64,000 bases of DNA from Phycisphaerae bacterium (GTDB taxonomy: Bacteria; Planctomycetota; Phycisphaerae; UBA1845; Fen-1342), in the NCBI GenBank assembly GCA_050115495.1, contig JASFQK010000022.1, positions 35,860 to 99,859 on the forward strand, written 5' to 3'. The notes beneath the pieces are model-generated. The model had not been told where the DNA came from, did not search any database, and saw only the letters and a program-made list of their open reading frames with translations. Of the stretch, positions 14,026-34,367 are shown piece by piece (the first letter of the stretch is position 1; every line of letters starts with the position of its first letter). A program made the translations under genes and the position numbers.

Positions 14026-14129
14026 CCGCTCCTTCCTTCTGATGGCTCAGCGCGTCTTCGTTCAGCGCGCCTCGATCCGTGGCCGCATCCGCGCGGCAAT
14101 CCGGCACAGCGCGGAGCGCCGCCGGTCGG

Positions 14130-15656: not shown

Positions 15657-15842
15657 GATGGTGGGGTCCTGGATGTGCTGTTTTCTGGCGACATGGCTGG
15701 GTCCATTGTATACAGACCATAACCGCTCAATCAACGAGTAAATTCGGATTGCCCTATCCCCGCCCCTGCCCCCTGCGCAGCCGACATCGTCAGACCCGCG
15801 TCACGCCACAATGGTCCTATAACACTGAGCCGCAGAACGCCT

Positions 15843-17207: not shown

Positions 17208-17238
17208 GGGCGGTGGTCCCTCACTGGCCTTGGTCCAT

Positions 17239-17562
17239 TCATGAAACGTCCCCATGATACACGACATACAAATGCTCAGTCAACGAGCAAACACACCCAC
17301 AGAGCGATGCCGCGTCGGGTTCGTCCGTCAGGGCGATGGACTCGCGCTGCACCTGCTGGATGTCCAACGGTGTGTCCGCCGCCTCGGCGCTTGCTCCAGG
17401 TTGGGCGGCGAGGTGGTTCAGGGCGAGGTCCACTTCGAGGACATCCTTCGTCGCCCGGTAGTTGCCGGCGATCTGATACACGTCCGGACCTGCAGTCGTT
17501 CGCGCCCGGTACTTCAGACAGACCGAGTCACCCCGCCGATCGGCCATACGTATGCGCTGCAT
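17239..17562 (-). pseudogene. Probable gene fragment of unknown family
   Basis: Core stretch (GNYRATKDVLEVDLALNHLAAQ...IALTDEPD) has coding-like G/C third positions, but there is no convincing start or recognisable domain. Confidence 0.25.
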
Positions 17563-18217: not shown

Positions 18218-20371
18218 ATGCAAGTCATTCCCCCCGAGCAGCCGCAGCGCGATCTTTTCGGCGATGTCATTGGTTTTACGGACATTCGCAAGCGTGACGG
18301 ACGTGTTACACCGTTTAACGCGCGCAAGATTACGGACGCAGTTCAACGTGCGGGCGGTGCGACCGGCGAGTTCGACGAAGCGACGGCGCGACGCCTGACG
18401 CTCCGCATACTCAGCCTGGCTCAGGCAACCTTGGGCAACGGCATCCCGACGGTGGAGCAAATCCAGGACATCGTCGAACACGTCTTGCTGGAATCCCCCT
18501 TCAAGCGGACGGCTAAAGCGTACATTCTCTATCGGGACCAGCATGCACGGAACCGCGAGTTGATGGCGCGAGCCGACGTGGACCTTGTCGACCAATACCT
18601 GGAACGCCTGGACTGGAAGGTTCAGGAAAACAGCAACATGGCTTATTCACTCCAAGGCCTGAACAACTACGTTTCCAGCGAGGTCAGTAAGGTCTACTGG
18701 CTCAACAAGATCTACACGCCGGAAATCCGCGCCGCGCACAGCGAAGGTGACCTGCACATTCACGACCTCGGCGTGCTGTCGGTGTATTGCGTCGGCTGGG
18801 ACCTGCACGACCTGTTGCTGGTCGGTTTCCGGGGAGCCGCGGGCAAAACGGAGAGCGCTCCGGCGCGCCACTTCCGCAGTGCGCTGGGCCAGATCGTGAA
18901 CTTCTTCTACACGCTTCAGGGTGAAGCCGCAGGGGCACAGGCGTTTTCGAGTCTCGACACGCTCCTGGCGCCGTTCATCCGGTTCGACAACCTGTCATAC
19001 GAGCAGACCAAGCAGGCGCTCCAGGAATTCGTCTTCAACGTCAACGTCGCCACTCGCGTCGGCTTCCAGACGCCGTTTACCAACGTCACGCTGGATCTCC
19101 AGCCGCCCGCGGCCCTCGCCAACCAACCGGTCATCATCGGCGGCAAACCGCGGGAAGAGACCTACAGCGAGTTCCAGGAAGAGATGAACGTGTTCAACCG
19201 CGCCATGCTCGAAGTGCTCAGCGAGGGAGACGCCAGGGGCCGCGTGTTCACCTTCCCGATTCCAACCTTCAACATCAGCCCCGACTTCGACTGGGACGCG
19301 CCCCAACTCGAGAAACTGTGGGAAATCACGGCCAAGTACGGCATCCCGTATTTCGCGAACTTCGTGAATTCTGACCTGTCGCCGGACGACGCGCGCTCGA
19401 TGTGTTGCCGACTGCGTCTCGACCTGCGTCATCTGGCCAAACGCGGCGGCGGTCTGTTTGGCGCCAACCCGCTCACGGGCTCGATTGGCGTCGTCACGAT
19501 CAACATGCCGCGCCTCGGCTATCTGGCACAGTCCGAGGACGATTTCCTCGGCCGGCTCGATCTGCTCATGGAAATCGCCCGGGCCAGCCTGGAAACCAAA
19601 CGCAAAGTCCTGGAGCAACTGACCGAGAGGAATCTCTATCCCTATAGCCGCTTCTATTTGCGGCACATCAAAGAGCGGCACGATCGCTACTGGCACAATC
19701 ATTTCGCGACGATCGGGCTGGTGGGCATGAATGAGGCTTGCCTGAACCTGCTGCAATGCGACATCGGTGCGCCGAAAGGAGTCGCGTTCGCCACGCGGGT
19801 GCTCGATCACATGCGCGACCGACTCGCCACGTTTCAACAACAGACCGGGAACTTCTACAATCTCGAGGCGACGCCGGCCGAAGGGACGACCTATCGGCTT
19901 GCGCAGTTGGATCGGCAGCGATTCCCCGACATCCATGTGGCCAATGATCGCTCCGTCGCCGGCGGCGCCGAGCCGTTCTACACGAACTCGTCGCAACTGC
20001 CGGTCAATTACACTGATGACATCTTTGAGGTTCTCGATCTTCAGGATGAACTGCAGGCTCGATACACCGGTGGGACCGTCCAGCATATCTTCCTGGGCGA
20101 GGCTGTATCTGATCCCGCATCGGTGAAGGCTTTCGTCAAACGGGTCTGTGACGCCTATCGACTGCCCTACTTCACGGTTACGCCGACGTTCTCGATCTGT
20201 GCGTCACATGGCTACTTGCTCGGCCGACAACCGCGTTGCCCAAAATGCAACGCGGAAACCGAGGTGTACTCGCGTGTCGTCGGCTATCTGCGCCCGGTCA
20301 AGCAATGGAACGATGGCAAGCAAGCTGAGTTCGACGAGCGCAGCCGCTACCTGCTCGGAGCGTCAGCATGA
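18218..20371 (+). CDS. nrdD: Anaerobic (class III) ribonucleoside-triphosphate reductase with N-terminal ATP cone
   Basis: IRKRDGRVTPFN ATP cone; HIHDL, YCVGW, SMCCRL, EATPAEG, YTGGT, CxxH..CxxC Zn site, YSRVVGY glycyl-radical motif. Confidence 0.96.
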   Translation: MQVIPPEQPQRDLFGDVIGFTDIRKRDGRVTPFNARKITDAVQRAGGATGEFDEATARRLTLRILSLAQATLGNGIPTVEQIQDIVEHVLLESPFKRTAKAYILYRDQHARNRELMARADVDLVDQYLERLDWKVQENSNMAYSLQGLNNYVSSEVSKVYWLNKIYTPEIRAAHSEGDLHIHDLGVLSVYCVGWDLHDLLLVGFRGAAGKTESAPARHFRSALGQIVNFFYTLQGEAAGAQAFSSLDTLLAPFIRFDNLSYEQTKQALQEFVFNVNVATRVGFQTPFTNVTLDLQPPAALANQPVIIGGKPREETYSEFQEEMNVFNRAMLEVLSEGDARGRVFTFPIPTFNISPDFDWDAPQLEKLWEITAKYGIPYFANFVNSDLSPDDARSMCCRLRLDLRHLAKRGGGLFGANPLTGSIGVVTINMPRLGYLAQSEDDFLGRLDLLMEIARASLETKRKVLEQLTERNLYPYSRFYLRHIKERHDRYWHNHFATIGLVGMNEACLNLLQCDIGAPKGVAFATRVLDHMRDRLATFQQQTGNFYNLEATPAEGTTYRLAQLDRQRFPDIHVANDRSVAGGAEPFYTNSSQLPVNYTDDIFEVLDLQDELQARYTGGTVQHIFLGEAVSDPASVKAFVKRVCDAYRLPYFTVTPTFSICASHGYLLGRQPRCPKCNAETEVYSRVVGYLRPVKQWNDGKQAEFDERSRYLLGASA

Positions 20372-21021
20372 ACATCGGTGGCCTGCAACCATTCAGCCTC
20401 AACGACTTCCCCGGACGGGTGGCCGCCGTCATCTTCACCCAGGGCTGCAACTTCTGTTGCCCCTTCTGCCACAACGGACAATTGGTTTCGTCCAACGGCG
20501 TCCCTGACGAGCAGTTGTCAGACGGCGATGTTCTCCGTTTCCTGCGGAACCGCCGGCGGCAGATCGACGGCGTCGTTCTAAGCGGTGGCGAGCCTACCCT
20601 ACAGCCCGATCTGCCGGATTTTCTGTGCCAACTTCGCCGACTCGGCTACGCGATCAAGATCGACACGAACGGATCGCGGCCCGACGTGATCCGGCGGCTG
20701 ATCGCAGCCGAGTTCGTCGATTTCATTGCGATGGACGTGAAGGCGCCGCTGGAACGATATGACGTCCTGTCCGGTACACGCGTGAACACAGCGGAGATCC
20801 TGGAATCGATCCAGCTGATCTCGGCCAGCACGATCGCCCACCAGTTCCGCACAACGGTAGTCCCTTCACTGCTCCATGCCGCCGACATTGCGCGGATTCG
20901 CCGCCTGCTTCCTGAGAACGAGGAACTGCGCTTGCAGACTTTCCAGCCGGAGCACGCTCGGGACCCGGCGCTGCGTCAGCAAGCTGCTGCGAATCAGTCT
21001 CACGCGGCTCTGGCTGGTTAG
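20368..21021 (+). CDS. nrdG: Anaerobic RNR activating radical SAM enzyme
   Basis: GCNFCCPFCHN, SGGEP, DTNGS; start overlaps the nrdD stop. Confidence 0.93.
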   Translation: MNIGGLQPFSLNDFPGRVAAVIFTQGCNFCCPFCHNGQLVSSNGVPDEQLSDGDVLRFLRNRRRQIDGVVLSGGEPTLQPDLPDFLCQLRRLGYAIKIDTNGSRPDVIRRLIAAEFVDFIAMDVKAPLERYDVLSGTRVNTAEILESIQLISASTIAHQFRTTVVPSLLHAADIARIRRLLPENEELRLQTFQPEHARDPALRQQAAANQSHAALAG

Positions 21022-21040
21022 TGGCTGATCGGAGAACGCC

Positions 21041-21607
21041 ATGAGCATCTGCCCCGATACCTGGATTATCAGCAAGGCCCGCAACGAAGGCATGATCGAC
21101 CCGTTCGTGCCCGGGCTGGTGCGCCAGATCGAAAACCGTCCCGTGATTTCTTACGGCGTGTCGTCTTACGGGTACGATGTTCGTGTCTCAAACCAGTTTC
21201 GCATCTTCACGAACGTTTACGGCTCTGTGGTCGATCCGAAGGCGTTCGATCCCAAGGGCTTGGTGGCAGTCGAGAGTGAGGTCTGTCTGATTCCTCCGAA
21301 CAGCTTCGCGCTGGCGCTCAGCGTCGAGTACTTTCGGATCCCGCGGAACGTCTTGACACTGTGCGTGGGCAAATCGACCTACGCACGCTGCGGCATCATC
21401 GTCAATGTCACGCCATTCGAACCCGGTTGGGAAGGTCGCGCCGTGCTGGAGATTTCGAACACGACGCCGTTGCCGGCTCGTGTGTATGCGAACGAGGGCC
21501 TGGCCCAGGTGCTGTTCTTCGAAGCCGCGCAGCCCTGCAAGACCAGCTACGCTGACCGCAAGGGTAAGTATCAATCTCAAAACGACATCACGCTACCACA
21601 AGCGTGA
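21041..21607 (+). CDS. dcd: dCTP deaminase
   Basis: [65 protein letters not shown]. Confidence 0.96.
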
Positions 21608-21934
21608 CGCAAGACCGTCGTGTGGGGTCACGGCCAGCGAAGGCGAGAGCCGCTGCAACTCGCGGCCGCTGTACACGTCCCACATGCGGGCGGTGCCGTC
21701 TTCGCTGGCGGACAGGGCGCGGGTGCCGTCGCCGGAAAATGTCGCCGACGTAACCGCCACGGTGTGCCCCCGGAATCGCAGCAGCTCGATTCCGTTCTCG
21801 ACATCCCACAGCCGGAAGCTGCTTTCGCCACCACCTCGCGTCAGGACGTGCTTGCCATCGGGTGAGAACGGAATGGACACCCCGACGTCCGAGTGCCCCA
21901 ACTGCGCCACCAGCAACCCGACGATTCCGATCAA
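21593..21934 (-). pseudogene. WD40-repeat remnant (about two blades)
   Basis: GHSD...FSPDGKHVLT...RLWD and GHTVAVTSATFSGDG...SASEDGTARMWD; too short for a propeller; overlaps the dcd 3' end. Confidence 0.7.
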
Positions 21935-21968
21935 ACGGAGAAACAGACGAACAGGCGAACGTATCCTG

Positions 21969-24110
21969 CTATTCCTCGGCGCGCGGCTCGGCGGCGGGGA
22001 CGATGTCGAACGACACGTTCCGCGCCGCCCAGTTCACGGCGTTTTCGAAGTCGCCGCGGGCACGGGTGGCGTCCGCGCCGCGGGCGGTCTGCCGGCTCCA
22101 GGCGCGGTCGAGCTTCTGGATGAACGGATCACGCGGACCGCGGGCGCCGCGAGCCCTGGCCGAGGCGATCAACCAGTCGAAGTCCAGCTCCTTGCTGGCG
22201 ACCAGCACCTTGATACCGACCGGCAGGCGGTCGACGCGCAAGTCGCCCAGCCGGGCGGTCGTCGTCCACGAGTGCGTCCTGTCGTTCTTGCCCGTTCCGA
22301 GCGTTATGCGGTGCGTGTCGCCAATCCGCATCAGAAGCGGCCCCTGCCCCAGTGCTTCCACGCGGTAGTACAGATAGACGTAATACGGCTCGGTGCCGCG
22401 GCTCGTGATGTTGATGCGGATGCGCGCTCCGTCCGGAACCTGGGCCACACCGCCGACTTCCATGAACGGGATGATCTCGTTCGTGTCGCTCGACACAGCG
22501 ATGCCGGCCTGAATCTCGAGGTTCGCCTCGTTGCCGGTCAGGCCCCAGAAGCGCTGCTGCCGGGTGAGTTCATCGAGCGAGACGGCGACCTGGTCGGCGA
22601 TGGTGTCCACCTGCCCGTTCGATGAGATCTCGATCGTACGCAGCGGCGCACCGGGCTCGGCGCTATCCGGCGCACCTTTGCGAAAGACGGCGTCGTCGTG
22701 GGCATAGATGGCCAGGGTCGCGTCCGATTTCGCCTTGTCGATGATGAAATCCGCGTCGGTAGGGTCGTCACACAGAGCCAGCCGGCCCTCCTTGCCATGC
22801 GCGAGCAGTTCGTCGCGAACCGCCTCGGGGACGTTCGCTGAAACGAACGCCGGAAGATCACTGGCCGCCCAGGCGCTAACGACGGCGACCGCACCTTCCG
22901 GAACCGGGGACGGCGAGGGATCGACCAGCCGGATGATCGCCCGATCGAGAATGGCTTTCTCGACGAGGGCCTCGGCCACCGGCGGCTCGTTGTTGTACAG
23001 CGCGTCCAGGCTGGCGAGGACCCGGAGTTGCGTGCCGCTCACCAGCCCCAGGGCCAGGCCGGCGTCGACCTCATACTCGCCATCTTCCGCTGTGTCCTGA
23101 CGTGCGGTCACGTGGAAATGCACGGGCTGCAATTGCGTGGCGAAGCAGACCGTGCGGCGGTCCGCCGGCTCGACGGCATGCAGCGCGGGCTGCTGTTTCC
23201 AGCCGCGCTGTTGCATGTAGTCGCCGATGTCCCGGTGAAGGTCTGCGTAGCTGTGACCGGGGCGATGCTTGAGCAGCGACTGCTGCAGCGCGTAGGAGAA
23301 CCGTCCCCACATCTCCTGGCACCCATCCGGACCGGTGGGGGCGTCGGTCTCCTCGGCCACGTCGTTGTCCTGCGTCGCGGCGAAGCACACAAACCGTGGC
23401 CGGCGTGTTCGCGTATCCTTCGGCGGTCCGCAGGCGTCCACAAACTCACCCGCTTTGGCGTCCGGACGCAGGTTGCCGAAGCGCTTGCAGAGCTCAGGGA
23501 AGAGCGGTTCGCGCGGGCCGGGGGGAAAGTGCTCTCCGCGACTGACGGATAAGCCGTCGCTGCCCCGCCAACTCGTCGCGCAGTGGCACGCGTCGACGAA
23601 CATGACCAGATCGGCGCCCAGGTCGGCCACGGCCGCACGCCACATGGCGACGTCATCGTCGCGTATGTCGTGTTCGCCGTGTCCCTCCGACTTGGTCACG
23701 GTGACCCAGGTTTCATCCAGGTGGTCGCTCTCATCGCCGTTTTGGTCTTCGACGCGACTGCCGTGGCCGAAGTAGTAGAGGACGGCGGTGACTTCGCGTC
23801 CCTCGCTACGGGCCTGCCGGATGCGCTCGAGGAAGTCGCGCAGGCGATCGCGCACGACCTCGCGCGAGCCGTCCATGAGCGGCTCGCCCCACGAGATGCC
23901 GAAGCACCTCGTCAACGACGGCAGCAGTCGGTCCTTGTGCGTGGCATTGCTCTCATACGTTGGACGGGCATCCTGGTAGTGTCCCATGCCGATGTAGAGA
24001 CCGATGATCTCGCGGTCCTCGGCCAGTGCTGCGCAGTGGACCAGCAAGGCGAAGACGCACGCGGCGAGCCAGACTCTGCCGGGCGAATTGGCTGACCGGC
24101 AATAGGTCAT
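21969..24110 (-). CDS. Signal-peptide-bearing caspase-family (C14, metacaspase-like) protease with a long C-terminal extension
   Basis: VWLAACVFALLVHCAALA signal; YYFGHGS (His), DESDHLDETW, FVDACH (Cys); C-terminal region reminiscent of DUF4384. Confidence 0.85.
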   Translation of the reverse strand: MTYCRSANSPGRVWLAACVFALLVHCAALAEDREIIGLYIGMGHYQDARPTYESNATHKDRLLPSLTRCFGISWGEPLMDGSREVVRDRLRDFLERIRQARSEGREVTAVLYYFGHGSRVEDQNGDESDHLDETWVTVTKSEGHGEHDIRDDDVAMWRAAVADLGADLVMFVDACHCATSWRGSDGLSVSRGEHFPPGPREPLFPELCKRFGNLRPDAKAGEFVDACGPPKDTRTRRPRFVCFAATQDNDVAEETDAPTGPDGCQEMWGRFSYALQQSLLKHRPGHSYADLHRDIGDYMQQRGWKQQPALHAVEPADRRTVCFATQLQPVHFHVTARQDTAEDGEYEVDAGLALGLVSGTQLRVLASLDALYNNEPPVAEALVEKAILDRAIIRLVDPSPSPVPEGAVAVVSAWAASDLPAFVSANVPEAVRDELLAHGKEGRLALCDDPTDADFIIDKAKSDATLAIYAHDDAVFRKGAPDSAEPGAPLRTIEISSNGQVDTIADQVAVSLDELTRQQRFWGLTGNEANLEIQAGIAVSSDTNEIIPFMEVGGVAQVPDGARIRINITSRGTEPYYVYLYYRVEALGQGPLLMRIGDTHRITLGTGKNDRTHSWTTTARLGDLRVDRLPVGIKVLVASKELDFDWLIASARARGARGPRDPFIQKLDRAWSRQTARGADATRARGDFENAVNWAARNVSFDIVPAAEPRAEE

Positions 24111-25837
24111 CAGGCCCCCCCGCCGAAGATCTGAGCCAGCGTACGATCAAGCTTCACGCCCTCGATCTGCGGCGTCTGTGGGCGCGCAGATCCCAGCTTC
24201 TCGGAGACGTACTCATGCACGCGAGCGCGAACGTGGTCCATGAACTCGCGCATCGTGATGCGCGTGCCGTTGCCGTCGATCTCGTCCACCAGGAAACGGG
24301 TGAACACGCTCGGCCGGCCGTTCACGCCGGCGCGGGAGGTCTCGTCATCCGCGCAGCCGGCCCAGAGCACGTGATGACGCGGGCTGTCGACGAAGTGTCC
24401 TTCGCCGGCGTCGCCCTTGCTCGGGATGTACTCCGTCGGCAGAACGAGGTGTTCCTGGATCCAGGGGGCCTTGAGGTTCACCGCCTTGAAGTCCTCGCCG
24501 AGCGTGCCGGATCCGGCGTGACAGGAGTCGAAGATAGCCAGCGCGCGGTCGCAATCCAACTCGTCGAGCAGAGCGCCGATCTCGTCATCGACGAGCACGG
24601 ACGAGGCGTCCTCCAGCCCCCACACGTAAAGCACCTCATCCAGGTCGTCTTTCTCGTCCTTGCGGCCGACGTCGTCCATCTGCGCCCCGTGGCCGGAGTA
24701 GTAGAACAGCGCCAGACCGTCCGGACCGACCTGACCGAGGAACTCGCGGATACCGCGGATGATGTTGTCACGCGAGGCCTGGTTGTTGGTGAGCGTGAGG
24801 ATGTTCTCCTCGCTGAACCCGAAGCGATCGACCAGCAGGTCCCGCATCACGCCCACGTCGATCACGCAACTGCTCAGGTCGGATTCCTCGCCGGGGTAGT
24901 CGTCGATGCCCACCAGCAGCGCGTATCGTCCGTCGGACGACCCGCCGGTGCTGAAGGACGGCATCGGGGCCGCGCGCTCGACCGCCTCGACTTCCCGGAT
25001 TCGCAGCTCGTAGTCACCCGATTCCCGTGCGGAGTAGGCGTTGACGACCGCGAAGTACCGGCCGGTGCGCGGGAGCTGGATGCGGATGCGGCTGCTGTTG
25101 CCCGAGCCGAAGTCGTCATTCGACGTCAGCACCGTGCGATCGTCATCTTCCACGATGCCGATGGCCAGAACAGGATCGAAGGACGAGGACGTCAGCGTCA
25201 GCACCAGGGTCTGGCCGCGACGGCCCTGGAAGTAGACGAGCTCGAAGAGGCTGCCGTCGCTGAGGCGATCATCATCGGACGCGGAGAGCCGGCCGCGATG
25301 AACGGGTGGCGGCGCGTCGGTTCCCGAATCGTCTCCGGACCAGCTCGACCGGCGACCCGCCCGCTCGACGTCGATCGTAAGCGTGTACTCGCCGCGATCG
25401 GAGCGGTCCGCGCCGTTCGCGACGACGAGGTACTCACCACCGGTCTCGATCGTGACCTCCAGCCGGGCATCCAGCCCCGGGCCGCTGTCGTCATCTTCCG
25501 CGACGGTGTCGAGGCCTTCGTCCGTACGCCGCACGAGCAGCACGTACGCATCCAGGTCCGTCGAGGACATCGCGATCACCACGCGGTCGCCGGCGGAGAA
25601 GCTCGCCGTGTAGGCGTCGGCCCGCGATCCGTCGCGGATTTGCGTGTCGGAGCTGTCCAGCCGGCCGTATTCCGTCCTCCGCTCCCTGGTCTCGGAGAAG
25701 TCTCCTTTGAGCATGATCTTGTGGGGGGCTTCGAGTTCGGCCGTGATCTGCTTGGCTGGGGCCGGCGAATCGAGGCCGAGCGTGAACAGGCTGAGGCACG
25801 CGGTCGCGATGATGGCGGCGGCAATCCTGGCGTCCAT
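24110..25837 (-). CDS. Signal-peptide-bearing caspase-family (C14) protease with two N-terminal PPC-like domains
   Basis: MDARIAAAIIATACLSLFTLG signal; two PPC-like units (DAYVLL..EDDDSG..DARL; DPVLAI..NDDFG..SSRI); ALLVGIDDY, FYYSGHG, IFDSCH; TGATG coupling to the next caspase. Confidence 0.87.
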   Translation of the reverse strand: MDARIAAAIIATACLSLFTLGLDSPAPAKQITAELEAPHKIMLKGDFSETRERRTEYGRLDSSDTQIRDGSRADAYTASFSAGDRVVIAMSSTDLDAYVLLVRRTDEGLDTVAEDDDSGPGLDARLEVTIETGGEYLVVANGADRSDRGEYTLTIDVERAGRRSSWSGDDSGTDAPPPVHRGRLSASDDDRLSDGSLFELVYFQGRRGQTLVLTLTSSSFDPVLAIGIVEDDDRTVLTSNDDFGSGNSSRIRIQLPRTGRYFAVVNAYSARESGDYELRIREVEAVERAAPMPSFSTGGSSDGRYALLVGIDDYPGEESDLSSCVIDVGVMRDLLVDRFGFSEENILTLTNNQASRDNIIRGIREFLGQVGPDGLALFYYSGHGAQMDDVGRKDEKDDLDEVLYVWGLEDASSVLVDDEIGALLDELDCDRALAIFDSCHAGSGTLGEDFKAVNLKAPWIQEHLVLPTEYIPSKGDAGEGHFVDSPRHHVLWAGCADDETSRAGVNGRPSVFTRFLVDEIDGNGTRITMREFMDHVRARVHEYVSEKLGSARPQTPQIEGVKLDRTLAQIFGGGA

Positions 25838-26547
25838 CGGCAGTCCCCTTTCTGAGCTGCTCTGGGCCCTCATGTGAGAGCCGGGCTTCATCTTCCATCC
25901 ACGAACAATCTGCCTGCGCACGGGTGCTGGCGAGCGCTCGCCCATCGAGGCAATTACGACACCCGCTCGCTCATTTGGATGCAGTTCTCGCTCGAGAGTT
26001 CCGCCCCTCGCCCGGCGTCGAACCGGAGACATGTCCGGACAAGAACGGAAACCCATTGTAGCAAGCACGATAGCACGTCGGAAGCATGCCTGACCGGGGG
26101 CACGCGACGGCCCGGACGCGTTGGATGCGGCTCGCGCGTCCGCCGCCGCCGAGCCGGCCGCCGACGGAGTCCGGAAGCCGGCCCGTGAGCGGTTCCGAAC
26201 CTCGGAGCCGGCCCGCGTTCTTTACGCCGGCGGGGCGGGGCGGCATCATGGTGATGGCTGCCCGTCGACGCTTTTCGATCTGCCGCCTGGCGGCAGCGCC
26301 GGCGTCCTGACGGCGGCCGCGACGTGGTGCTTCCTGACGCCTGCCCGCGAGATGGGAGGGTTATTTTGGCGCTCCATTCCGGTCACGCGGTGAAGATGGG
26401 GAGCGGCTTGGTTACACGAACGGGACATATATCGGCGACCGAATCCGGTACCGTCAGAACCGAACCAGCCCGGCGACCACTCGCACTTCTAAGGTCCGCT
26501 CGTGCTCGTTAAGAATCGTGAATGAGGCGGGGTGAAAGCCGGACGAG

Positions 26548-29500
26548 ATGCGTATGACCTACTGCCCACAGCGAGACCAGATCCGCACCTGGCGATACGC
26601 AATCCGAACGAGCAGCATCGGCATCTGCCTGCTGCTTCTCGTCGCGGCACCACCCGCGCCAGCCCAGGAAACGCATCTGCTCAAACCGGGCGCTACGATC
26701 ATCATCGAGGGAGAGCTAACAACCGCGGACCCACATCCAAACGGTAGCCGCCCTGTCGACACGTACATCGTCACCGTCCCCGGCGGGCCGATCGCCATCG
26801 ACGTGTACTCGTCGGATGTCGACACCTACCTGCACGTCGCGCTGGAAGAGGATGATGGTCACCTCGCGACGATTGGTGATGATGACGGAGGCGCTGATAC
26901 GGATAGCCGCCTTGCGTTCAAACTGACGCATGCGCGGATCGTGTGCATTTCGGTTACTTCGATTGGCGCCGGCGAGTATGGCCGGTACAGGCTCCTGCTC
27001 ACCTCTGGCACACCCGGCGGCCCGTTTCTACCGTTTCACGCGCTCGCCACGGTGCTTGAATTGCAGGACGACATGGACGACCGCAGGCAGGCGTTTGCGG
27101 AACAGGACATGCGCTTGCTGGCCAGCACCATCGCGTCAGCCGAGCAGATCGTCGCCATCAGGGAATCGCATCAGGCAGACTGGCCTGATGGCCGAGGCCC
27201 CTGGTGGGAGCTGCGAGACAGCGAACTGCAAGTCGCCGAATTGAGACGGCTTCAGACACGCTCCGCGGAAGAGACGGCAGAACTGCGTGACGCCCGCATC
27301 GAGTTCGACATCGCCCTCGAAAGCGCCACTCCGGAGACGGCGGCAGAGGCGCTGCGCGATGCCGATCGCAGTCGGCTCGTGATGCAGTGCATCATGGGAG
27401 ATGATCACCCGGATGTACTCGAAGCGCTCATCTATTCCGGCTATGCGCTGTATTCCCTCCACCAGTACACTGACGCTGAACCCTACTTCCGCGAGGCGAT
27501 GGAGAAGCAGCGCCGGGTGCTGGGCCCGGATCACCCTTCCACACTGCTCTCGGTGACCCTGTATGGTGCCGTGCTGGCGCGGCTGGACCGACCGGGGGAG
27601 GCCGAGCCCTACCACCGCGAGGCGCTGGAGGGCCGGCGCCGTGTGCTCGGCAGCAATCATCGCGACACGGTTGCCTCCTTGCTGGATTACGCCCACCTGC
27701 TCCACGCTCTCGGCCGCGATATGGAAGCTCAGCCCTATCGGCGGCAGGCGCTGGAGTGCAAACGACGAATACTCGGCAATGAGGACCCAAGCACCATGGC
27801 CTCGCTCTATGTCTACGGGGTTCGCGTCTTGGCGCTCGATTGCCCAATGGAGGCCGAACCGTACCTTCGCGAAGCCCTGGAATTGCGCCAGTCCGTCCTG
27901 GGGTACAACCATCCGGACACGCTGCATTCGCTGGATGCCTACGGGCTGGTCATGGAATCACTGGGGCGCAATGCGGAGGCTCTGCTGTACTGGCGGGCCG
28001 CAATGGACGGTCGCCGTCGCGTGTTGGGAGAGGATCACCCGCTGACTTTGGGATCGCTGGAGCATTACGGTTCCGCGCTCTGGGCGCTGGATCGGCCGGC
28101 GCAGGCCGAACCGTATCTGCGTGCGGCCGTGGAAGGGCGTCGTCGCGTGCTGGGCGAACTGCATCCGCACACCCTGCGGTCACTTGGTCGCTTGGGTTGC
28201 CTGCTTCGCCTGTTGGACCGACCGACCGACGCTGAACCGTATTGTCGCCAGGCACTCGAAGGATGGCGCCAGATACGGGGGGATGATGACTCCGAGTACC
28301 TGGACTCACTTGCGGATTACGGCAACCTGCTGCACGACCTGGGCAGGCCGGCTGAGGCCCGGTCATGCCTTCGCGACGCATTGGCAGGATGTCGGCGCAC
28401 GTTGGGAAACAACCACCCGTTGACCTTCTCGGTTCTCCAGAGCCACGTGTTGGGGCTTCACGACACGGACGATGCAGGGGAAGTTCTCTCAGCGTACCGT
28501 GAGTTGCTGGAAATCACCGAGCGACTGAGAGTGGAGACCGTCGCCACCGAGTTGCAGCGCGCAGAGAAAGCGAACGAATACGACCTGGCGGAGACCGGGC
28601 GATACCTCGCCTGGCTGGAACTGGACCAAGGCGACTGCAGGTTGGCGCACGAGGCGATGGAACGAAGCACGTCGCGGGCGCTGTTGGATCTGATCGAGCG
28701 AGGCCGTGAAGGCGCGGCGAAGATCGTTGATCCGGCACTGCTCGCCCGTATCGCTGCGGCACGGGAGCGCGAGTCGGAAACGCGGCAGGCGGTTGTCTCT
28801 GCAGAACACCGCCTTGCCACGATGCGTGAGTCTCTGCGGCGAGACGCGGCAGGATCCGGACGGCGCGCCGAGGAAGTCCGCATGCAGAGAGCGGAAGTCG
28901 AGCGTTTGCGACAGCTTCTCAGCGAACGAACTCTGGCTGTGTTCAGACTGCTGCGCGATGCATACCCGGTGGCAAGACCGCTGCAGGCGAGTGAATTACA
29001 GGCGAGCCTGGGCGCAGATGAAGCCATCGTTCAATTCGGCTGGTTGAATGCCGGTGCTGCATTGGCAATGGCACTCGATGCACGCCACCTGGAGGGCGGC
29101 GAGATCGGCGTGCGTGAGCCGTCTGTTGAGGCGCTCGAGGCGAGTGTCGAGGCATTGAAGCACGATTGCGCCACACGCGGAGCGCTCGCCGCAGATGATG
29201 TGCGGCTCCGTCAGCTTCGCGAGGGGCTCTTCCCCTCGAAGGTCGGGGAGATGATCGATGCCGCGAAGCGGGTCGTCATCATACCGGACGGTCCGCTCAA
29301 CGGTCTTCCGTTCGGTCTGCTCCTGCCGGACAAGGAGGTATCCTACGCTGCCTCGGCCACGATGTACGTGGATCGTGTCCGGGCTGCGCGGGCGCAGGCC
29401 GATACCGAACGTTCCAAAGCTGTCCTCGTCGTCGGTGATCCCGACTTTGGCAATGCGCCCGCTCCGACGCGTACTCCTTCGCTGGACGAGCCCCTTGAGC

Positions 29501-30414
29501 GTGTCTCTGCCCGGGCCAACTCCCTGGACGACCTGCGTCTGCACGGCGGCCGATTGAGTCGCCTGTGCGGTACGCGCTTGGAGGCGTTGGCGATCGACCG
29601 CCTGGCACAGGCTCAGGGTCTGGATTCGACGGCGCTCCTGCAGGCCCGGGCAACTGCACCGGAGGTGGCCGCCGCCGCGAAGCACTCACCCCGTTTCCTG
29701 CACCTCGCTACGCATGGGCTCCTCGGTGACGCGCAGCGGCCGTACGACGTAAGCCTTGCCTTGACTCAACCGAAAGTCCCCACGGCGGAGGACATCGGGT
29801 TCCTCCGGCTGGAGGAGTTAGTCGGCAACTGGCAGGGTCACTTGGCCAGGACCGAGCTCGTGACGCTCTCCGCCTGCCAAACGAACGTCGGCGAGCAACG
29901 CGGCGACAGCATGATCAGTCTGCCGTGGGGGTTCTTCTTCGCCGGCGCGCCAACTGTGGTAGCCAGCCTGTGGCAGGTGGACGACGAGGCGACAGCGCTC
30001 TTGATGCAGCGTTTCTACGAAAACCTGCTCGGCGCACATAACGACACGCGCTCCATCCGCGGCCGGAGCTATGGTGCCAACGAGGCCCTCACCAAACTGG
30101 ACGCGCTCGACGAAGCCAAGTTGTGGCTGCGCACGCTGACGCACGACGAAGCCCAGGCCGCCAGGGAACGCTTGTACGAATCGGCCGGCGAAGGGCCGAC
30201 CGACTGTGATGAGAAGCACGGCGATAGCCTGCTCGGCTGGTTGAGTGACCGAGGACGGCTGGCGCCGGCGGTTGCGGCGAACGACGTCGCCCGCCCCGCC
30301 GAACCGGTCGGCTTCGGCCTCGTCGATTGGGAGCTGCCGAAGTCCGAAGAAGAGCTGCCCTACGACCACCCGTATTTCTGGGCCCCGTTCGTCCTCATCG
30401 GGAGCCCGGAGTAA
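26548..30414 (+). CDS. PPC-TPR-CHAT protease with a possible signal peptide
   Basis: IGICLLLLVAAPPAPAQ; PPC-like DTYL..DDDGGADTDSRL; nine 42-aa TPRs; IIPDGPL, HLATHG (His), LSACQT (Cys), ASLWQVDD, HPYFWAPFVLIG. Confidence 0.9.
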   Translation: MRMTYCPQRDQIRTWRYAIRTSSIGICLLLLVAAPPAPAQETHLLKPGATIIIEGELTTADPHPNGSRPVDTYIVTVPGGPIAIDVYSSDVDTYLHVALEEDDGHLATIGDDDGGADTDSRLAFKLTHARIVCISVTSIGAGEYGRYRLLLTSGTPGGPFLPFHALATVLELQDDMDDRRQAFAEQDMRLLASTIASAEQIVAIRESHQADWPDGRGPWWELRDSELQVAELRRLQTRSAEETAELRDARIEFDIALESATPETAAEALRDADRSRLVMQCIMGDDHPDVLEALIYSGYALYSLHQYTDAEPYFREAMEKQRRVLGPDHPSTLLSVTLYGAVLARLDRPGEAEPYHREALEGRRRVLGSNHRDTVASLLDYAHLLHALGRDMEAQPYRRQALECKRRILGNEDPSTMASLYVYGVRVLALDCPMEAEPYLREALELRQSVLGYNHPDTLHSLDAYGLVMESLGRNAEALLYWRAAMDGRRRVLGEDHPLTLGSLEHYGSALWALDRPAQAEPYLRAAVEGRRRVLGELHPHTLRSLGRLGCLLRLLDRPTDAEPYCRQALEGWRQIRGDDDSEYLDSLADYGNLLHDLGRPAEARSCLRDALAGCRRTLGNNHPLTFSVLQSHVLGLHDTDDAGEVLSAYRELLEITERLRVETVATELQRAEKANEYDLAETGRYLAWLELDQGDCRLAHEAMERSTSRALLDLIERGREGAAKIVDPALLARIAAARERESETRQAVVSAEHRLATMRESLRRDAAGSGRRAEEVRMQRAEVERLRQLLSERTLAVFRLLRDAYPVARPLQASELQASLGADEAIVQFGWLNAGAALAMALDARHLEGGEIGVREPSVEALEASVEALKHDCATRGALAADDVRLRQLREGLFPSKVGEMIDAAKRVVIIPDGPLNGLPFGLLLPDKEVSYAASATMYVDRVRAARAQADTERSKAVLVVGDPDFGNAPAPTRTPSLDEPLERVSARANSLDDLRLHGGRLSRLCGTRLEALAIDRLAQAQGLDSTALLQARATAPEVAAAAKHSPRFLHLATHGLLGDAQRPYDVSLALTQPKVPTAEDIGFLRLEELVGNWQGHLARTELVTLSACQTNVGEQRGDSMISLPWGFFFAGAPTVVASLWQVDDEATALLMQRFYENLLGAHNDTRSIRGRSYGANEALTKLDALDEAKLWLRTLTHDEAQAARERLYESAGEGPTDCDEKHGDSLLGWLSDRGRLAPAVAANDVARPAEPVGFGLVDWELPKSEEELPYDHPYFWAPFVLIGSPE
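27390..28510 (+). repeat. Nine degenerate 126-nt (42-aa) kinesin-light-chain-type TPR repeats
   Basis: Periodic units: GDDHP, GPDHP, GSNHR, GNEDP, GYNHP, GEDHP, GELHP, GDDDS, GNNHP, most followed by an AEPY-like motif. Confidence 0.85.
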
Positions 30415-30712
30415 CGCACGCCGGCGAAGCCCGCCTTCCGCCGGAGGCACGCTCAGAAGCCGCTGTCCGCATCCAGTTCGAACACGTACTCGTCCGGCCT
30501 GCGGTTCGCACACAACGTGTCCTGGCAGGGCGCGAACGTCGCTGACGCCGGCGGATCGGGCGAGACTAGCCGTCGTGTGACGGGCCGGAGCGGCCGGCAG
30601 CAAACCGAAGCGCCCGGGGCGAGCGCGTACCCACGGCGAGCGCCCCATGCTACGATTCACCCCGTGGCCCGGGGCGAGAGCGTCGCTCAGCAGCACGAGG
30701 AGTACCGACGCG

Positions 30713-32032
30713 ATGACATCGCAGGTTGTCGTTTGCCTGCTCGGCGTATTGCTCGGCCTCCTTTCGCTTTTCGCGGCCTTGCGCGCCGGTCGCCGCCGCC
30801 GGCTCATTGACAATCTGCCCACCTCGAAGACTACCGGCGTCTTCATTGGCCAGGTCGAGCTCAAGGGTACTGCCGAGTCCGCACAGCCGCTCGTCAGCTA
30901 CCTCGCCGAGCGGCTGTGCGTGCATTACAAGTGGAGTGTCGACGAGCACTGGTCGCGAACCGTGACTGAGACGTACACCGACAGCGAGGGGAAGACCCAG
31001 ACCCGCACCCGCCACGAAAGCGGCTGGGAGACGGTCGCCAGCGGCGGCGAACAGAGCGTCTTCTATCTTCGCGACGACTGTGGCGTCGTCCTCGTCAACC
31101 CTGACCGTGCCGAAGTGGAGCCGGTAACGGTTTTCGAGACCACGTGCGACCGCGGAGACCCGCTCTACTACGCCAAAGGGCCGGCCCACGCCGTGAGCAA
31201 TTCCGATCACCGCCGCCGATTCTTCGAGGAAGCCATCCCACTGCACGCCCGCATCTACGTCATGGGTCCGGCACGCGAACGGGATGACGTCGTCGCGCCC
31301 GAGATCAGGTACCGACGTGACACCCCCCTGTTTCTGATCTCGACGCGCAGCGAAGCCCGCATCAGCGCCGGCCTGAACGTCCAGTTCTGGTGCTGCGGCG
31401 TGCTGTTCGTGGTGCTCTGCGCCGGTGGCGTGATCGGGTTGGACTACGGACACCAGGTCGTTCCGGCGGATCCGCTAACGTGGCAACTGACCGTCGTCGG
31501 CGCCGCCCTGGCGACGTGGGCGCTCGGCTGGCTCTGGATGGCGTACAACAGCATGGTCGGCCTCCGGCAGCGCGTGCGGCAGGCCTGGGCGAATGTCGAC
31601 GTGCAGCTCAAGCGGCGTAACGACCTGATCCCCAACTTGGTCCGCGCGGTCGAGGGCCTGCGGGATCACGAGCGTCACGTTCAGGCGGAGCTGGCCGAGC
31701 TGCGCAGCCAGTTGCTCGCGACGGCACCCGGCCAGGCGGGACCCGATCCGCGTGGCTGCGCCTCATTGCTGCGCGGCATCATCGAGCATTACCCGGAGCT
31801 GAAGGCCGACAAGGCGTTCATGAAGCTCCAACAGAACCTGATCGACACCGAGCAGCGTATCTCGCTGGCCCGCGGGTACTTCAACAGCATCGCCACGTTC
31901 TACAACACGCGGCTGCAAGTCATCCCCGATCGCTTCGTGGCGGCGATCAGCGTGATGAAGCCGCAGCCGCTCATCGCCGCCACCGACTTCGAGCGGGCCG
32001 CGGTGCATGTCAATCTGGTGAGCGGCGAGTAG
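30713..32032 (+). CDS. Membrane protein: GIDE-like domain fused to a C-terminal LemA domain
   Basis: TM, then NLPTSKT..G.VELKG, FYLRDDCG.VLVNP, EEAIP (GIDE-like); two TMs; YNSMV.LRQRV.QAWANVDVQLKRRNDLIPNLV, YPELKAD (LemA). Confidence 0.8.
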   Translation: MTSQVVVCLLGVLLGLLSLFAALRAGRRRRLIDNLPTSKTTGVFIGQVELKGTAESAQPLVSYLAERLCVHYKWSVDEHWSRTVTETYTDSEGKTQTRTRHESGWETVASGGEQSVFYLRDDCGVVLVNPDRAEVEPVTVFETTCDRGDPLYYAKGPAHAVSNSDHRRRFFEEAIPLHARIYVMGPARERDDVVAPEIRYRRDTPLFLISTRSEARISAGLNVQFWCCGVLFVVLCAGGVIGLDYGHQVVPADPLTWQLTVVGAALATWALGWLWMAYNSMVGLRQRVRQAWANVDVQLKRRNDLIPNLVRAVEGLRDHERHVQAELAELRSQLLATAPGQAGPDPRGCASLLRGIIEHYPELKADKAFMKLQQNLIDTEQRISLARGYFNSIATFYNTRLQVIPDRFVAAISVMKPQPLIAATDFERAAVHVNLVSGE

Positions 32033-32266: not shown

Positions 32267-32656
32267 ATGGCGAGGATCTTGATCGTGGATGACGACATCG
32301 ACCTCGTGGACGCGGTGCGTCTGATCCTGGAAAGGGACGGGCACCGGGTCGCGAGCGCCTCAAACCGTGAGGAAGGCATGCGTCAGGCGCTGGGAGACAA
32401 GCCGGACCTGCTGATTCTCGACATCATGATGGCCGCGCCGGATGACGGCATCGCCATGGCGCAGGAGCTGCGCAAAGCGGGTTTTGCCCAGCCGATCCTC
32501 ATGATGTCCAGTATTTCCCGAGCCACGGGCCTGTCCTACGGACGGGACGACGCCATCACGCCGGTCGATGACTTCGTGGACAAACCGGTCGCCCCGGACA
32601 CACTTCGGGCGAAGGTCCAGGCCCTACTGGGCGGTGCAAAGGAGGGGACATGCTAA
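32267..32656 (+). CDS. Single-domain response regulator
   Basis: ILIVDDD, PDLLILDIMM, MSS, DKP. Confidence 0.92.
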   Translation: MARILIVDDDIDLVDAVRLILERDGHRVASASNREEGMRQALGDKPDLLILDIMMAAPDDGIAMAQELRKAGFAQPILMMSSISRATGLSYGRDDAITPVDDFVDKPVAPDTLRAKVQALLGGAKEGTC

Positions 32657-33171
32657 GCATGCAACAGGATCGGCTGGCGGTGGAGATCGACGCGCTGGTG
32701 GATCGCCACGGCCGCGGGCGGTCCGCCCTGGTTCCGATTCTCCAGGATGTCCGGCGGCGCTACCACGCCATCAGTGACTTCGCGATGCAGACAGTGGCCG
32801 ACCGACTCAGCATACACCCCGTCGAGGTGTACGGTGTGGTGACGTTCTATGCCTTTCTGAGCGAGAAGCACCAGGGGCGGTTCGTCATTCGGCTATGCCG
32901 CACGGTCAGTTGTGACATGGCGGGCAAGGACGCGGTGGCGCGGCAACTCTGCAACGACCTGGGCATCGATTTCGGCGAGACCACGCGCGACGGGCGTTTC
33001 ACGCTGGAATGGGCCAACTGCATCGGCATGTGCGACCAGGGTCCGGCCCTGCTCGTTAACGACCAGGTCTTCACCCGCGTCACGCCGGAGAAGGTGCACG
33101 ACATCCTCACAGCGTGCGAACGGGCCTTCGGATCCCACGCTCTCCAGACCAAGGAGGAGCACGCACTATGA
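32650..33171 (+). CDS. NuoE-like [2Fe-2S] subunit of an NAD-linked [FeFe]-hydrogenase (HydC/HndA-like)
   Basis: VYGVVTFY, CRTVSC and CIGMC ligands. Confidence 0.92.
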   Translation: MLSMQQDRLAVEIDALVDRHGRGRSALVPILQDVRRRYHAISDFAMQTVADRLSIHPVEVYGVVTFYAFLSEKHQGRFVIRLCRTVSCDMAGKDAVARQLCNDLGIDFGETTRDGRFTLEWANCIGMCDQGPALLVNDQVFTRVTPEKVHDILTACERAFGSHALQTKEEHAL

Positions 33172-34364
33172 CCATCCGCAACGACATGACGCTCGCTGCC
33201 GTGGTGCCGAACGCCGGCCTGGCGGCAGCGCTGAAGATGGATCGCGCCGGCGTGATCGGCGAGATTCGCAACTCCGGGATGAAGGGGCGCGGCGGCGCCG
33301 GCTTTCCGACCGGGGTCAAGTGGAACCTCGCCGCCGGCGCGCGTGGCGAACGCAAGTTCGTCGTGTGCAACGCCGACGAAGGGGAACCCGGAACGTTCAA
33401 GGACCGCGTGATCCTCAGCGAGTGGCCCGACCTAGTCTTCGAGGGGATGACCATCGCCGGCTACGCCATCGGGGCGGCGGAGGGAATCCTGTACCTGCGC
33501 GGTGAATACAGCTACCTGCGGAAGGGACTGGAGGAATGCCTGGCCAAACGCCGAGCGGCAAAGCTGTTGGGAGCCGGCGCCGGCGGCAAGGAGGGCTTCT
33601 CCTTCGACATCCACCTGCACATGGGCTCTGGCGCGTACGTCTGCGGCGAGGAGACCGCGCTGATCGAGAGCCTGGAGGGCCATCGCGGCGAGGCGCGCAA
33701 CCGGCCCCCCTTCCCAGTGAACACGGGTCTCAACGGCATGCCGACGATCGTGAACAACGTGGAGACGTTCGCCTGGGCGAGCGCGGTCTTCGCCAAGGGC
33801 GCGGACTGGTTCAAGGGGATCGGGACGGAGAAATCGACCGGACCCAAGATGCTCAGCGTCTCGGGCGACGTCGAGCGTGCCGGCGTGTACCAGTTTCCGC
33901 TGGGGACGGCGGTACGGGACGTGCTGAAGGCCGCGGGCGGTGACGGTGCGAAGGCCGTGGTGATCGGCGGCGCGTCCGGCCACTGCGTGCCGGCGGACCA
34001 GTTCGACCGGGCCATCAGCTACGAGGACGTGGCCACGGGCGGCGCGGTGATCGTGTTCGGTCCAGAGCGGGACATGCTCGACGTGGCCGAGAACTTCCTC
34101 GAGTTCTTCGTGGACGAGTCCTGCGGGCAGTGCACGCCGTGCCGCATCGGGAACGTGAAGCTGCTCGAAGGCGTTCGCCGGCTGAAGCGCGGCGAATGCT
34201 CATCGGGGTATCTTCGCGAGCTGTGTGCCCTGGGCGAGACGATGCAGGTCGCCTCGAAATGCGGCCTGGGCCAGTCCAGCCCCAACGCGTTCCTTTCAAT
34301 CATTGAGCATTTCCGTCACGAGGTCCTGGGCCGGGCTTGCGCGACGATCGAGGCATGGGAGTAA
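33168..34364 (+). CDS. Short NuoF-like FMN/NAD-binding subunit (HydB/HndC-like)
   Basis: GRGGAGFPTG, NADEGEPGTFKDR, GAYVCGEETAL, NNVET, ESCGQCTPCR, CGLG; no extra ferredoxin domains. Confidence 0.93.
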   Translation: MTIRNDMTLAAVVPNAGLAAALKMDRAGVIGEIRNSGMKGRGGAGFPTGVKWNLAAGARGERKFVVCNADEGEPGTFKDRVILSEWPDLVFEGMTIAGYAIGAAEGILYLRGEYSYLRKGLEECLAKRRAAKLLGAGAGGKEGFSFDIHLHMGSGAYVCGEETALIESLEGHRGEARNRPPFPVNTGLNGMPTIVNNVETFAWASAVFAKGADWFKGIGTEKSTGPKMLSVSGDVERAGVYQFPLGTAVRDVLKAAGGDGAKAVVIGGASGHCVPADQFDRAISYEDVATGGAVIVFGPERDMLDVAENFLEFFVDESCGQCTPCRIGNVKLLEGVRRLKRGECSSGYLRELCALGETMQVASKCGLGQSSPNAFLSIIEHFRHEVLGRACATIEAWE

Positions 34365-34367
34365 ATC

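Follow-up and report, generated by a model that had tools for sequence, protein, structure and literature searches.

We analyzed a 64,000-nucleotide stretch of a Phycisphaerae bacterium (GenBank assembly GCA_050115495.1, contig JASFQK010000022.1, positions 35,860 to 99,859 of the forward strand; hereafter the window) and found in it three intact genes for clan-CD proteases lying together: two Peptidase C14 caspases and one TPR-CHAT protease, for all of which export to the cell envelope is predicted. The combination is real, rare and recurrent in related genomes, and apparently undescribed: we found no paper on an exported module of a PPC-caspase, a DUF4384-caspase and a CHAT protease in the open-access literature (subscription journals mostly lie outside it). 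We are much more certain that these genes form a real set of proteases, with export predicted from their N-termini, than of any mechanism proposed below. Labels beginning with P denote proteins, L loci and G genomes; L054 lies in G827, L217 in G1019 and L188 in G798, and the window genome is G000.

A coupled caspase pair divergent from a TPR-CHAT gene

On one side the trio is flanked by an nrdD-nrdG-dcd run, on the other by a GIDE-LemA gene. P0006, an exported-type PPC-PPC-C14 caspase of 575 amino acids (24110-25837, minus strand; C14 E 2.9e-24, PPC E 1.1e-7), is followed by P0001, an exported-type caspase of 713 amino acids (21969-24110, minus strand; Pfam C14 E 1.5e-12), and the two genes are coupled, the stop of the former overlapping the start of the latter (TGATG at 24110). 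Across an intergenic region of 710 bases (25838-26547), the gene of P0003, an exported-type TPR-CHAT protein of 1288 amino acids (26548-30414, plus strand; TPR_12 E 8e-67, CHAT E 4.7e-52), is divergent from this pair. The Pfam matches and the overlap thus confirm the arrangement that a first-pass annotation had read from the letters, namely two coupled C14 genes divergent from a PPC-TPR-CHAT gene. In the divergent region we found no sigma-70 consensus site or promoter, and no notable repeat.

Regarding the start codons, which that annotation wanted verified, one needed correction. The start of P0006 is ATG 25837 and not the GTG at 26068 of the longest open reading frame (an overshoot of 77 codons), because an AAAGGGG run resembling a ribosome site precedes it, the GC content at third codon positions (GC3) steps from 0.60 above it to 0.86 below it, and the database call is also 575 amino acids long. 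P0003 may start at its second Met, ATG 26554, as in the database call of 1286 amino acids. From that Met (plus strand), P0003 starts with M-T-Y-C, as does P0001 (24110, minus strand), with 12 of 13 bases identical; codon strings of this type occur only six times in the window genome, both strands included, and the likeness may be chance or a shared leader.

Both C14 matches of the window genome (5.97 Mb) are the P0001 and P0006 genes, and one of its two CHAT matches adjoins them, so the clustering is more than chance. The second TPR-CHAT of this genome (G000:C5:13084-16140, locus L002) is more divergent (E 1e-16) and lies tail-to-tail with a TPR gene. The GC3 of the three protease genes, 0.74-0.86, falls within the range of the neighbouring genes.

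Domains and catalytic residues

By domain, fold and His-Cys dyad, both caspases belong to Peptidase C14 (metacaspase/orthocaspase). P0001 consists of a signal-like segment (1-30), the C14 domain (about 35-320; 48.2 bits against a Pfam cut-off of 21.4), middle domains and a DUF4384-like C-terminal domain. PF14326 (DUF4384) matches 11 of 32 members of its family and not P0001 itself, and an atlas search with residues 325-713 gave a score of 0.93 to a cluster in which DUF4384 is present in 17% of the members. The dyad H116/C175 is invariant across the 32 rows of the family alignment A3, which are 32 of 150 listed matches, chosen by rank and length. P0006 has a signal-like N-terminus, two PPC domains (49-158 and 178-282) and the C14 domain (300-575; 86.5 bits against the same cut-off), with the dyad H383/C439 invariant across 17 rows.

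The AlphaFold models of the caspases (pLDDT 81 and 76) have metacaspase folds. The best matches of the P0001 model are metacaspases and the Geobacter GSU0716 structure 3bij, and the P0006 model aligns with 6w8r over 244 residues (Z 24.6, root-mean-square deviation (rmsd) 3.0). The PPC folds of P0006 resemble the collagenase PPC domain 5sv5 (Z 12.3, rmsd 2.3, 102 aligned), PliG 4dzg (Z 11.7, rmsd 2.7, 104 aligned) and the N-terminal domain of DeCLIC, 6v4b (Z 10.5, rmsd 2.4, 99 aligned). The residues of a putative acidic S1 pocket for Arg or Lys, as in metacaspases, are kept in P0006 (D327, S381 and D437); of these, only D173 remains in P0001, with H58 and F114 in place of the others. P0006 has Leu446 seven residues after the catalytic Cys (Cys+7) and an invariant K451. 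The EACC1-associated caspase model NF047832 gave 51.2 bits, below its cut-off of 140. A complex predicted between mature P0001 and the C14 domain of P0006 had a score of 0.00 and a mark of 0.32, and was counted neither for nor against an interaction.

P0003 is a TPR-CHAT protease: its TPR array precedes a CHAT domain in which the dyad is present. Its parts are a signal-like segment (1-39), a PPC domain (53-154), the TPR array (about 290-650) and the CHAT domain (887-1286; 177.7 bits against a cut-off of 24). The dyad H1056/C1110 was read from the sequence, both dyad motifs are common to its 50 listed matches, and they were assigned as the CHAT motifs of the family. The first-pass observation that all three proteins keep a His/Cys dyad is borne out. 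Residues 53-154 match the profile of the first PPC domain of the caspase family at E 1.1e-14, which places them in the same PPC subfamily and supports the sharing of PPC domains between a caspase and the CHAT protein. This PPC domain is rare on CHAT proteins: the profile missed 12 of 12 other CHATs (L054 included) and matched one of 49 other matches (P0240), and we rejected PPC as a fixed part of caspase-linked CHATs. A further PPC-TPR gene, interrupted by a contig end, is present in G911. P0003 showed no SAVED match.

In a CHAT tree of 29 rows (L217 not included), the CHATs of the window, L054 and G798 fall in a weak group (89/54) together with CHATs of the window's family from caspase-free genomic contexts, and P0003 has a branch of 0.89, longer than most of its family relatives. 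No clearly separate clade of caspase-linked CHATs came out in this tree.

Predicted export

Export was judged by a hydropathy and charge heuristic on N-termini, not by SignalP, and P0001, P0006 and P0003 all pass it. Signal-like N-termini were also found in 30 of the 32 A3 rows, 17 of 19 PPC-caspases (taken from 78 matches) and 43 of 50 CHAT matches, compared with 25 of 555 internal windows; left-out matches passed in 80/118 and 25/55 cases. By this measure, the signal-peptide-like segments noticed in the first-pass annotation are kept in homologues. Many PPC-caspases have a lipoprotein-like Cys, and the PPC folds match extracytoplasmic domains.

Recurrence in related genomes

A CHAT gene divergent from a PPC-PPC-C14 gene that is followed by a C14-DUF4384 gene recurs in L054 and L217, so the synteny proposed for checking in Planctomycetota was found. 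Two of the 251 genomes sampled from the planctomycete family of G827, which is not the family of the window, have this three-gene layout, and it therefore is not due to chance. It is kept at about 30-40% protein identity across three genomes, and the sole CHAT match of G1019 is the neighbour of the caspase pair. Four of the 251 genomes have the close P0001 subfamily and three a full PPC-PPC-C14 gene; all three of these full-length genes adjoin a DUF4384-type caspase gene or sit one gene away.

The conserved core of the module is the caspase pair, and the CHAT protease joins it optionally. The pair was found in 13 of 20 PPC-caspase loci, in records of Planctomycetota, Gemmatimonadota and Rubricoccaceae. 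Caspase pairs occur in genomes without a CHAT match (G875 and G829-G831, incomplete assemblies), and close relatives of the CHAT protein occur in genomes without a full C14 gene (G039 and G049). Hence, of the extracytoplasmic cascade led by the CHAT protein that had been suggested at first, predicted export and co-occurrence stand, while the role of the CHAT as an obligatory initiator does not.

The partners in these loci vary. A lipoprotein family with no Pfam match lies directly behind the CHAT gene in L054 (6098-6709) and L217 (8738-9583); it is a candidate for what the TPR array binds or works with. The G875 cluster comprises sigma-like, anti-sigma-like, PPC-caspase, patatin-like and DUF4384-caspase genes and two long C14 genes, with the patatin-like lipoprotein between the two caspases. 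In G798, an exported-type TPR-CHAT gene is divergent from four lipoprotein genes, a subtilase gene and a DUF4384-type caspase gene, the caspase being 7 kb from the CHAT. The four lipoproteins (L188:11021-17901) are tandem and related, without a Pfam match, and have Arg-Gly or Arg-Asp motifs in their N-terminal linkers. Gemmatimonadota loci (L055:7317-14964, L056, L058, L060-L062 and L067) combine three exported-type caspases with a secreted protein that has 5-10 PPC domains and may be a scaffold; three of the five searched Gemmatimonadota genomes with such clusters gave no CHAT match. Stand-alone DUF4384 lipoproteins were seen beside exported caspases in L168 (7627-8622), L170 (8231-9049) and L171 (6226-7209), and the two that were examined have a late Arg-Gly-Phe-Ala motif.

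Wider searches gave a scattered distribution. With a wider P0001 profile, matches came from 7 genomes of the class at E 1e-30 (401 searched) and from 31 genomes of the phylum at E 1e-40 (401 searched), with a CHAT near some of the matches and not near others; a search with the single P0001 sequence gave only three weak matches in 300 other class genomes. A metagenome scan with the two-row alignment A1 returned at least 18 generic caspase loci (25-59% identity, short stretches). P0004 and P0008 each come from a contig of 45,534 bases, likely one and the same. The closest CHATs of the window's family have signal-like N-termini, with kinases or sigma factors nearby in 5 of 10 stretches from three genomes (25 open reading frames of these stretches were scanned with Pfam). 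One genome of 4.8 Mb, G618, has 24 CHAT matches.

Sigma-like neighbours and candidate cut sites

In G827 and G875, a sigma-like gene and a gene for a protein with a single membrane segment lie by the caspase pair, and they are homologous between the two genomes (E 6e-40 and 1e-18). The sigma-like gene matches the sigma70 family of extracytoplasmic function (ECF) type at E 1.7e-4, under the cut-off. Just past the hydrophobic segment, on the outer side, the two membrane proteins share W-x-x-P-L-R-G-x-S-G-F-L-D. Near the PPC-TPR gene of G911 are genes for an ECF sigma factor, for a membrane kinase whose outer part bears an Arg-Gly motif, and for a caspase that falls in the wider DUF4384-type family. 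The first-pass annotation, which saw the window only and noted no effector in it, could not see the likely output, an ECF-like sigma factor with an anti-sigma-like protein or a kinase, which sits in these related loci.

An Arg at Cys+7 (R182 in P0001) is invariant in all 32 A3 rows and adjoins a low-confidence loop of the model. Arg-Gly motifs of P0001 lie at R182, R654/R657 and R677/R685. Across A3, Arg-Gly is present in three loop windows in 26/32, 21/32 and 18/32 rows, compared with a background of 0.12-0.20. Among the PPC-caspases, 14 of the 17 rows of alignment A2 have the Cys+7 Arg, and Leu stands there in P0006, P0007, P0008 and the G875 and G1019 proteins. We rejected this Leu as a mark of CHAT dependence: the G875 protein has it, and that assembly has no CHAT match. 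PCaspase, a C14 protease of a CRISPR system, is reported to be cut at R153 (Cys146+7). Arg219 of the orthocaspase MaOC1 was considered as a parallel to Cys+7 and dropped.

Other features of the window

Directly downstream of the caspase pair lies a WD40 remnant of 113 codons (21593-21934, minus strand), in which two PF00400 repeats (E 5.5e-15) verify what had been called a remnant at first sight. It is without a signal peptide, convergent on dcd, and has a GC3 of 0.825. Its best match in its own genome is 35%, and it is 41-47% identical to the WD40 parts of L178:4385-9625 and L068:2817-6011, both C14-bearing, in a set of fetched loci that is enriched for caspase loci. The remnant is likely a relic of a longer WD40 gene, possibly a WD40-caspase.

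The nrdD-nrdG-dcd run (18218-21607, plus strand) has a GC content of 0.61 against about 0.66, and its dcd was matched in none of six congeners at E 1e-40. On the other side, directly behind the CHAT gene, a gene at 30647-32032 (plus strand) encodes a fusion of GIDE (E3-ligase-like) and LemA with membrane segments; this fusion is in none of the fetched related loci, and among the six congeners two match its LemA part and none its full length. There follow, at 32267-36314 (plus strand), a response-regulator-like gene and then NuoE-like, NuoF-like and [FeFe]-hydrogenase genes. Farther upstream, three tandem paralogues of 474-534 amino acids (12496-17267, minus strand) have DNA stretches 67-81% alike, signal-like N-termini in the two translations examined, no Pfam protease match and a weak dockerin match on one; these two translations also have a papain-like Cys motif.

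The flanks of the locus are nucleotide, hydrogenase and sugar metabolism genes. Of 46 direct-repeat families, the 20 largest include no CRISPR-like array, in keeping with the initial impression, and no Cas family matched among the window proteins scanned (a part of the open reading frames). The trio has the WD40 remnant, dcd and GIDE-LemA as its direct neighbours, none of them a gasdermin gene, though no genome-wide search aimed at gasdermins was made. A PADLOC scan of four proteins gave only a generic caspase match and a weak BovA match.

A proposed envelope relay and its alternatives

We propose, with a probability of roughly 45%, that the module is an envelope protease relay that cuts the membrane regulator (anti-sigma factor or kinase) of an ECF sigma factor, with the CHAT protease as an optional input. 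From the observed genes, domains, dyads, coupling, layout and neighbouring sigma/anti-sigma-like or kinase genes, we infer three steps. The PPC domains, whose fold is like that of collagen-binding domains, and the TPR array would recognise, beyond the inner membrane, a ligand or a surface. The PPC-caspase, and the CHAT protease where present, would then cut the zymogen of the DUF4384 caspase at R182-G183 (Cys+7), and further Arg-Gly sites in its tail could allow amplification. Finally, the activated protease would cut the outer Arg-Gly motif of the anti-sigma-like protein, upon which regulated intramembrane proteolysis would start and the sigma factor be freed. The relay is favoured by the recurring layout, the frequent caspase pairing, the signal-like N-termini, the PPC folds, the sigma-like neighbours and the Arg-Gly motifs, and by two precedents: a bacterial caspase with putative Arg-Gly cut sites (10.1101/2025.11.14.688446) and the activation of a C14 protease by SAVED-CHAT (10.1101/2023.06.23.546230). 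A more specific version, which we hold to be unlikely, is a multi-step initiator/executioner cascade outside the inner membrane in which the PPC-caspase and the PPC-TPR-CHAT protein act as sensors converging on the Arg-Gly loop (Cys+7) of the DUF4384 caspase zymogen, the executioner being the site-1 protease for the ECF anti-sigma factor.

Several observations weigh against the relay. A CHAT gene lies by the PPC-caspase gene in only 3 of the 20 loci (some stretches are short), and among 72 genomes of the window's family CHAT occurs in 38, C14 in 13 and both in 10, linked only in the window genome; none of the six congeners has C14. P0001 has His58 in place of the pocket Asp of P0006, and its closest relatives have Asn or another residue there. 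The three loop windows counted for Arg-Gly were picked after the alignment had been viewed, and the A3 rows are kin. Many C14 proteins without a neighbouring CHAT also have the Cys+7 Arg; it therefore marks a general activation loop and is no pointer to CHAT. As for the target, the shared outer motif is in two sequences only, and the anti-sigma call is made from position and one hydrophobic segment, without a family match. No sigma gene lies on the 11.6-kb contig of G1019. Neither the anti-sigma-like protein nor the lipoprotein has a detectable homologue in the window genome (92% complete); therefore the module there either has some other target or is orphaned.

One could argue that the three enzymes are merely parallel envelope proteases, engaged independently in the maturation or degradation of secreted and surface proteins and activating only themselves. 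Their clustering would come from shared export, regulation and shuffled PPC modules, and the sigma factor of the relatives would control the proteases rather than be released by them. This is rather unlikely, if a serious contender. The caspase and CHAT sides do occur without each other, PPC resembles the substrate-binding domains of secreted collagenases, and MaOC1 activates itself at an Arg (PMC7475262). The G798 arrangement also fits, its caspase being in one run with the subtilase and lipoproteins. However, the divergent layout has persisted in three genomes despite low protein identity, two otherwise distant membrane proteins have the Arg-Gly motif in common, and the five planctomycete-type PPC-caspases that have lost the Cys+7 Arg have partners that keep it, which fits a division of labour.

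Built on the cascade first envisaged for this locus, a defence reading would have the TPR-CHAT as the obligatory initiator that activates both caspases, which would destroy envelope proteins of an invader or of the cell. We consider it improbable. It would agree with the patchy presence (4/251 and 7/401 genomes), with the patatin-like lipoprotein between the G875 caspases and with two precedents: SAVED-CHAT activates PCaspase, which degrades casein (10.1101/2023.06.23.546230), and the periplasmic TPR-CHAT of DdvA gates a defence island (PMC11506125). Against it stand the caspase pairs in genomes without a CHAT match, albeit incomplete assemblies, the meagre PADLOC result and the metabolic flanks. 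Very improbable, in our estimation, is that a once-complete module has lost its sigma factor, anti-sigma factor, lipoprotein and most of the WD40 gene and no longer works in the window genome. The WD40 remnant, the missing partners, the long CHAT branch and the lack of C14 in the congeners are compatible with such an orphan cassette, but all three frames are unbroken and keep their dyads and signal-like N-termini, a ribosome-site-like run and the coupling are in place, and GC3 is in the range of the neighbouring genes.

Relation to known systems

In order to contextualize the module, we compared it with published proteases. In the type III-B CRISPR system of Haliangium ochraceum, cleavage by SAVED-CHAT activates the C14 protease PCaspase (10.1101/2023.06.23.546230). 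There, as here, a CHAT gene lies near a C14 gene, and a sigma factor and a kinase are in the neighbourhood. Its sensor is SAVED, bound to cA3 from the CRISPR complex, in contrast to TPR and PPC here, and our locus differs further by its signal-like N-termini, two C14 genes, the lack of a SAVED match and the lack of a CRISPR array, type III or other, among the repeat families inspected.

In Myxococcus xanthus, the DdvA-DdvS pair includes a periplasmic TPR-CHAT, proposed to be the site-1 protease ahead of RseP that frees an ECF sigma factor, with the trigger and first cut left open (PMC11506125). The premise of the first-pass annotation that characterised CHAT systems are all cytoplasmic overlooked this protein. 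P0003 would be like DdvA in the placement of a TPR-CHAT outside the inner membrane, a location predicted here by the heuristic for P0003 and 43 of the 50 matches. DdvA unites a zinc anti-sigma domain, a membrane helix and the TPR-CHAT in one chain beside an ECF sigma gene, with no C14 caspase in that step, whereas P0003 is a separate exported-type protein that starts with a signal-like segment and PPC; the anti-sigma-like gene stands apart from it in the relatives and was not found in the window genome. The module is likened to both systems, to the one for its CHAT and C14 pairing and to the other for a TPR-CHAT predicted outside the membrane and upstream of a sigma factor, and is a member of neither.

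Regarding the caspases, their fold and dyad are those of bacterial metacaspases and orthocaspases such as MaOC1 and GSU0716 (3bij). A 2012 survey found a single N-terminal helix, maybe a signal peptide, in 46 of 671 metacaspase/orthocaspase sequences, and the accessible part assigned no function to exported ones (PMC3501461). DUF4384 is a listed accessory domain of Peptidase C14 in a work that also describes MaOC1 autoactivation (PMC7475262). A PPC-caspase/DUF4384-caspase pair or a CHAT partner is without mention in the accessible portions of both. Craspase Csx29 shares the TPR-CHAT architecture, and according to PMC11506125 its target has a link to a sigma factor; it is cytoplasmic and RNA-guided, and P0003 gave 16.6 bits with its model NF041237 (cut-off 300). 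LcCaspase of Lysobacter is a caspase-like protease with conserved Arg-Gly cut motifs, called putative, in the neighbour-encoded LcHydrolase (10.1101/2025.11.14.688446). Arg-Gly motifs are candidate cut sites in our module too; the substrate of LcCaspase is a death-effector hydrolase, and signal peptide, periplasm, CHAT and DUF4384 are without mention in the main text as available. EACC2-caspase systems with ECF sigma factors have a different architecture (PMC8195603). Hence, periplasmic TPR-CHAT and exported metacaspases are already published, and their combination is apparently new.

If the initiator/executioner version is true, the module would stand beside SAVED-CHAT/PCaspase as its equivalent in the envelope and beside DdvA as a version split over several proteins, and DUF4384 caspases would gain a function. 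The module comes with named candidate cut sites on separate proteins, R182 in the DUF4384 caspase and the Arg-Gly motif in the membrane protein of the relatives. This makes two questions directly testable: whether bacteria have caspase cascades in the envelope, and whether a caspase may serve as a site-1 protease.

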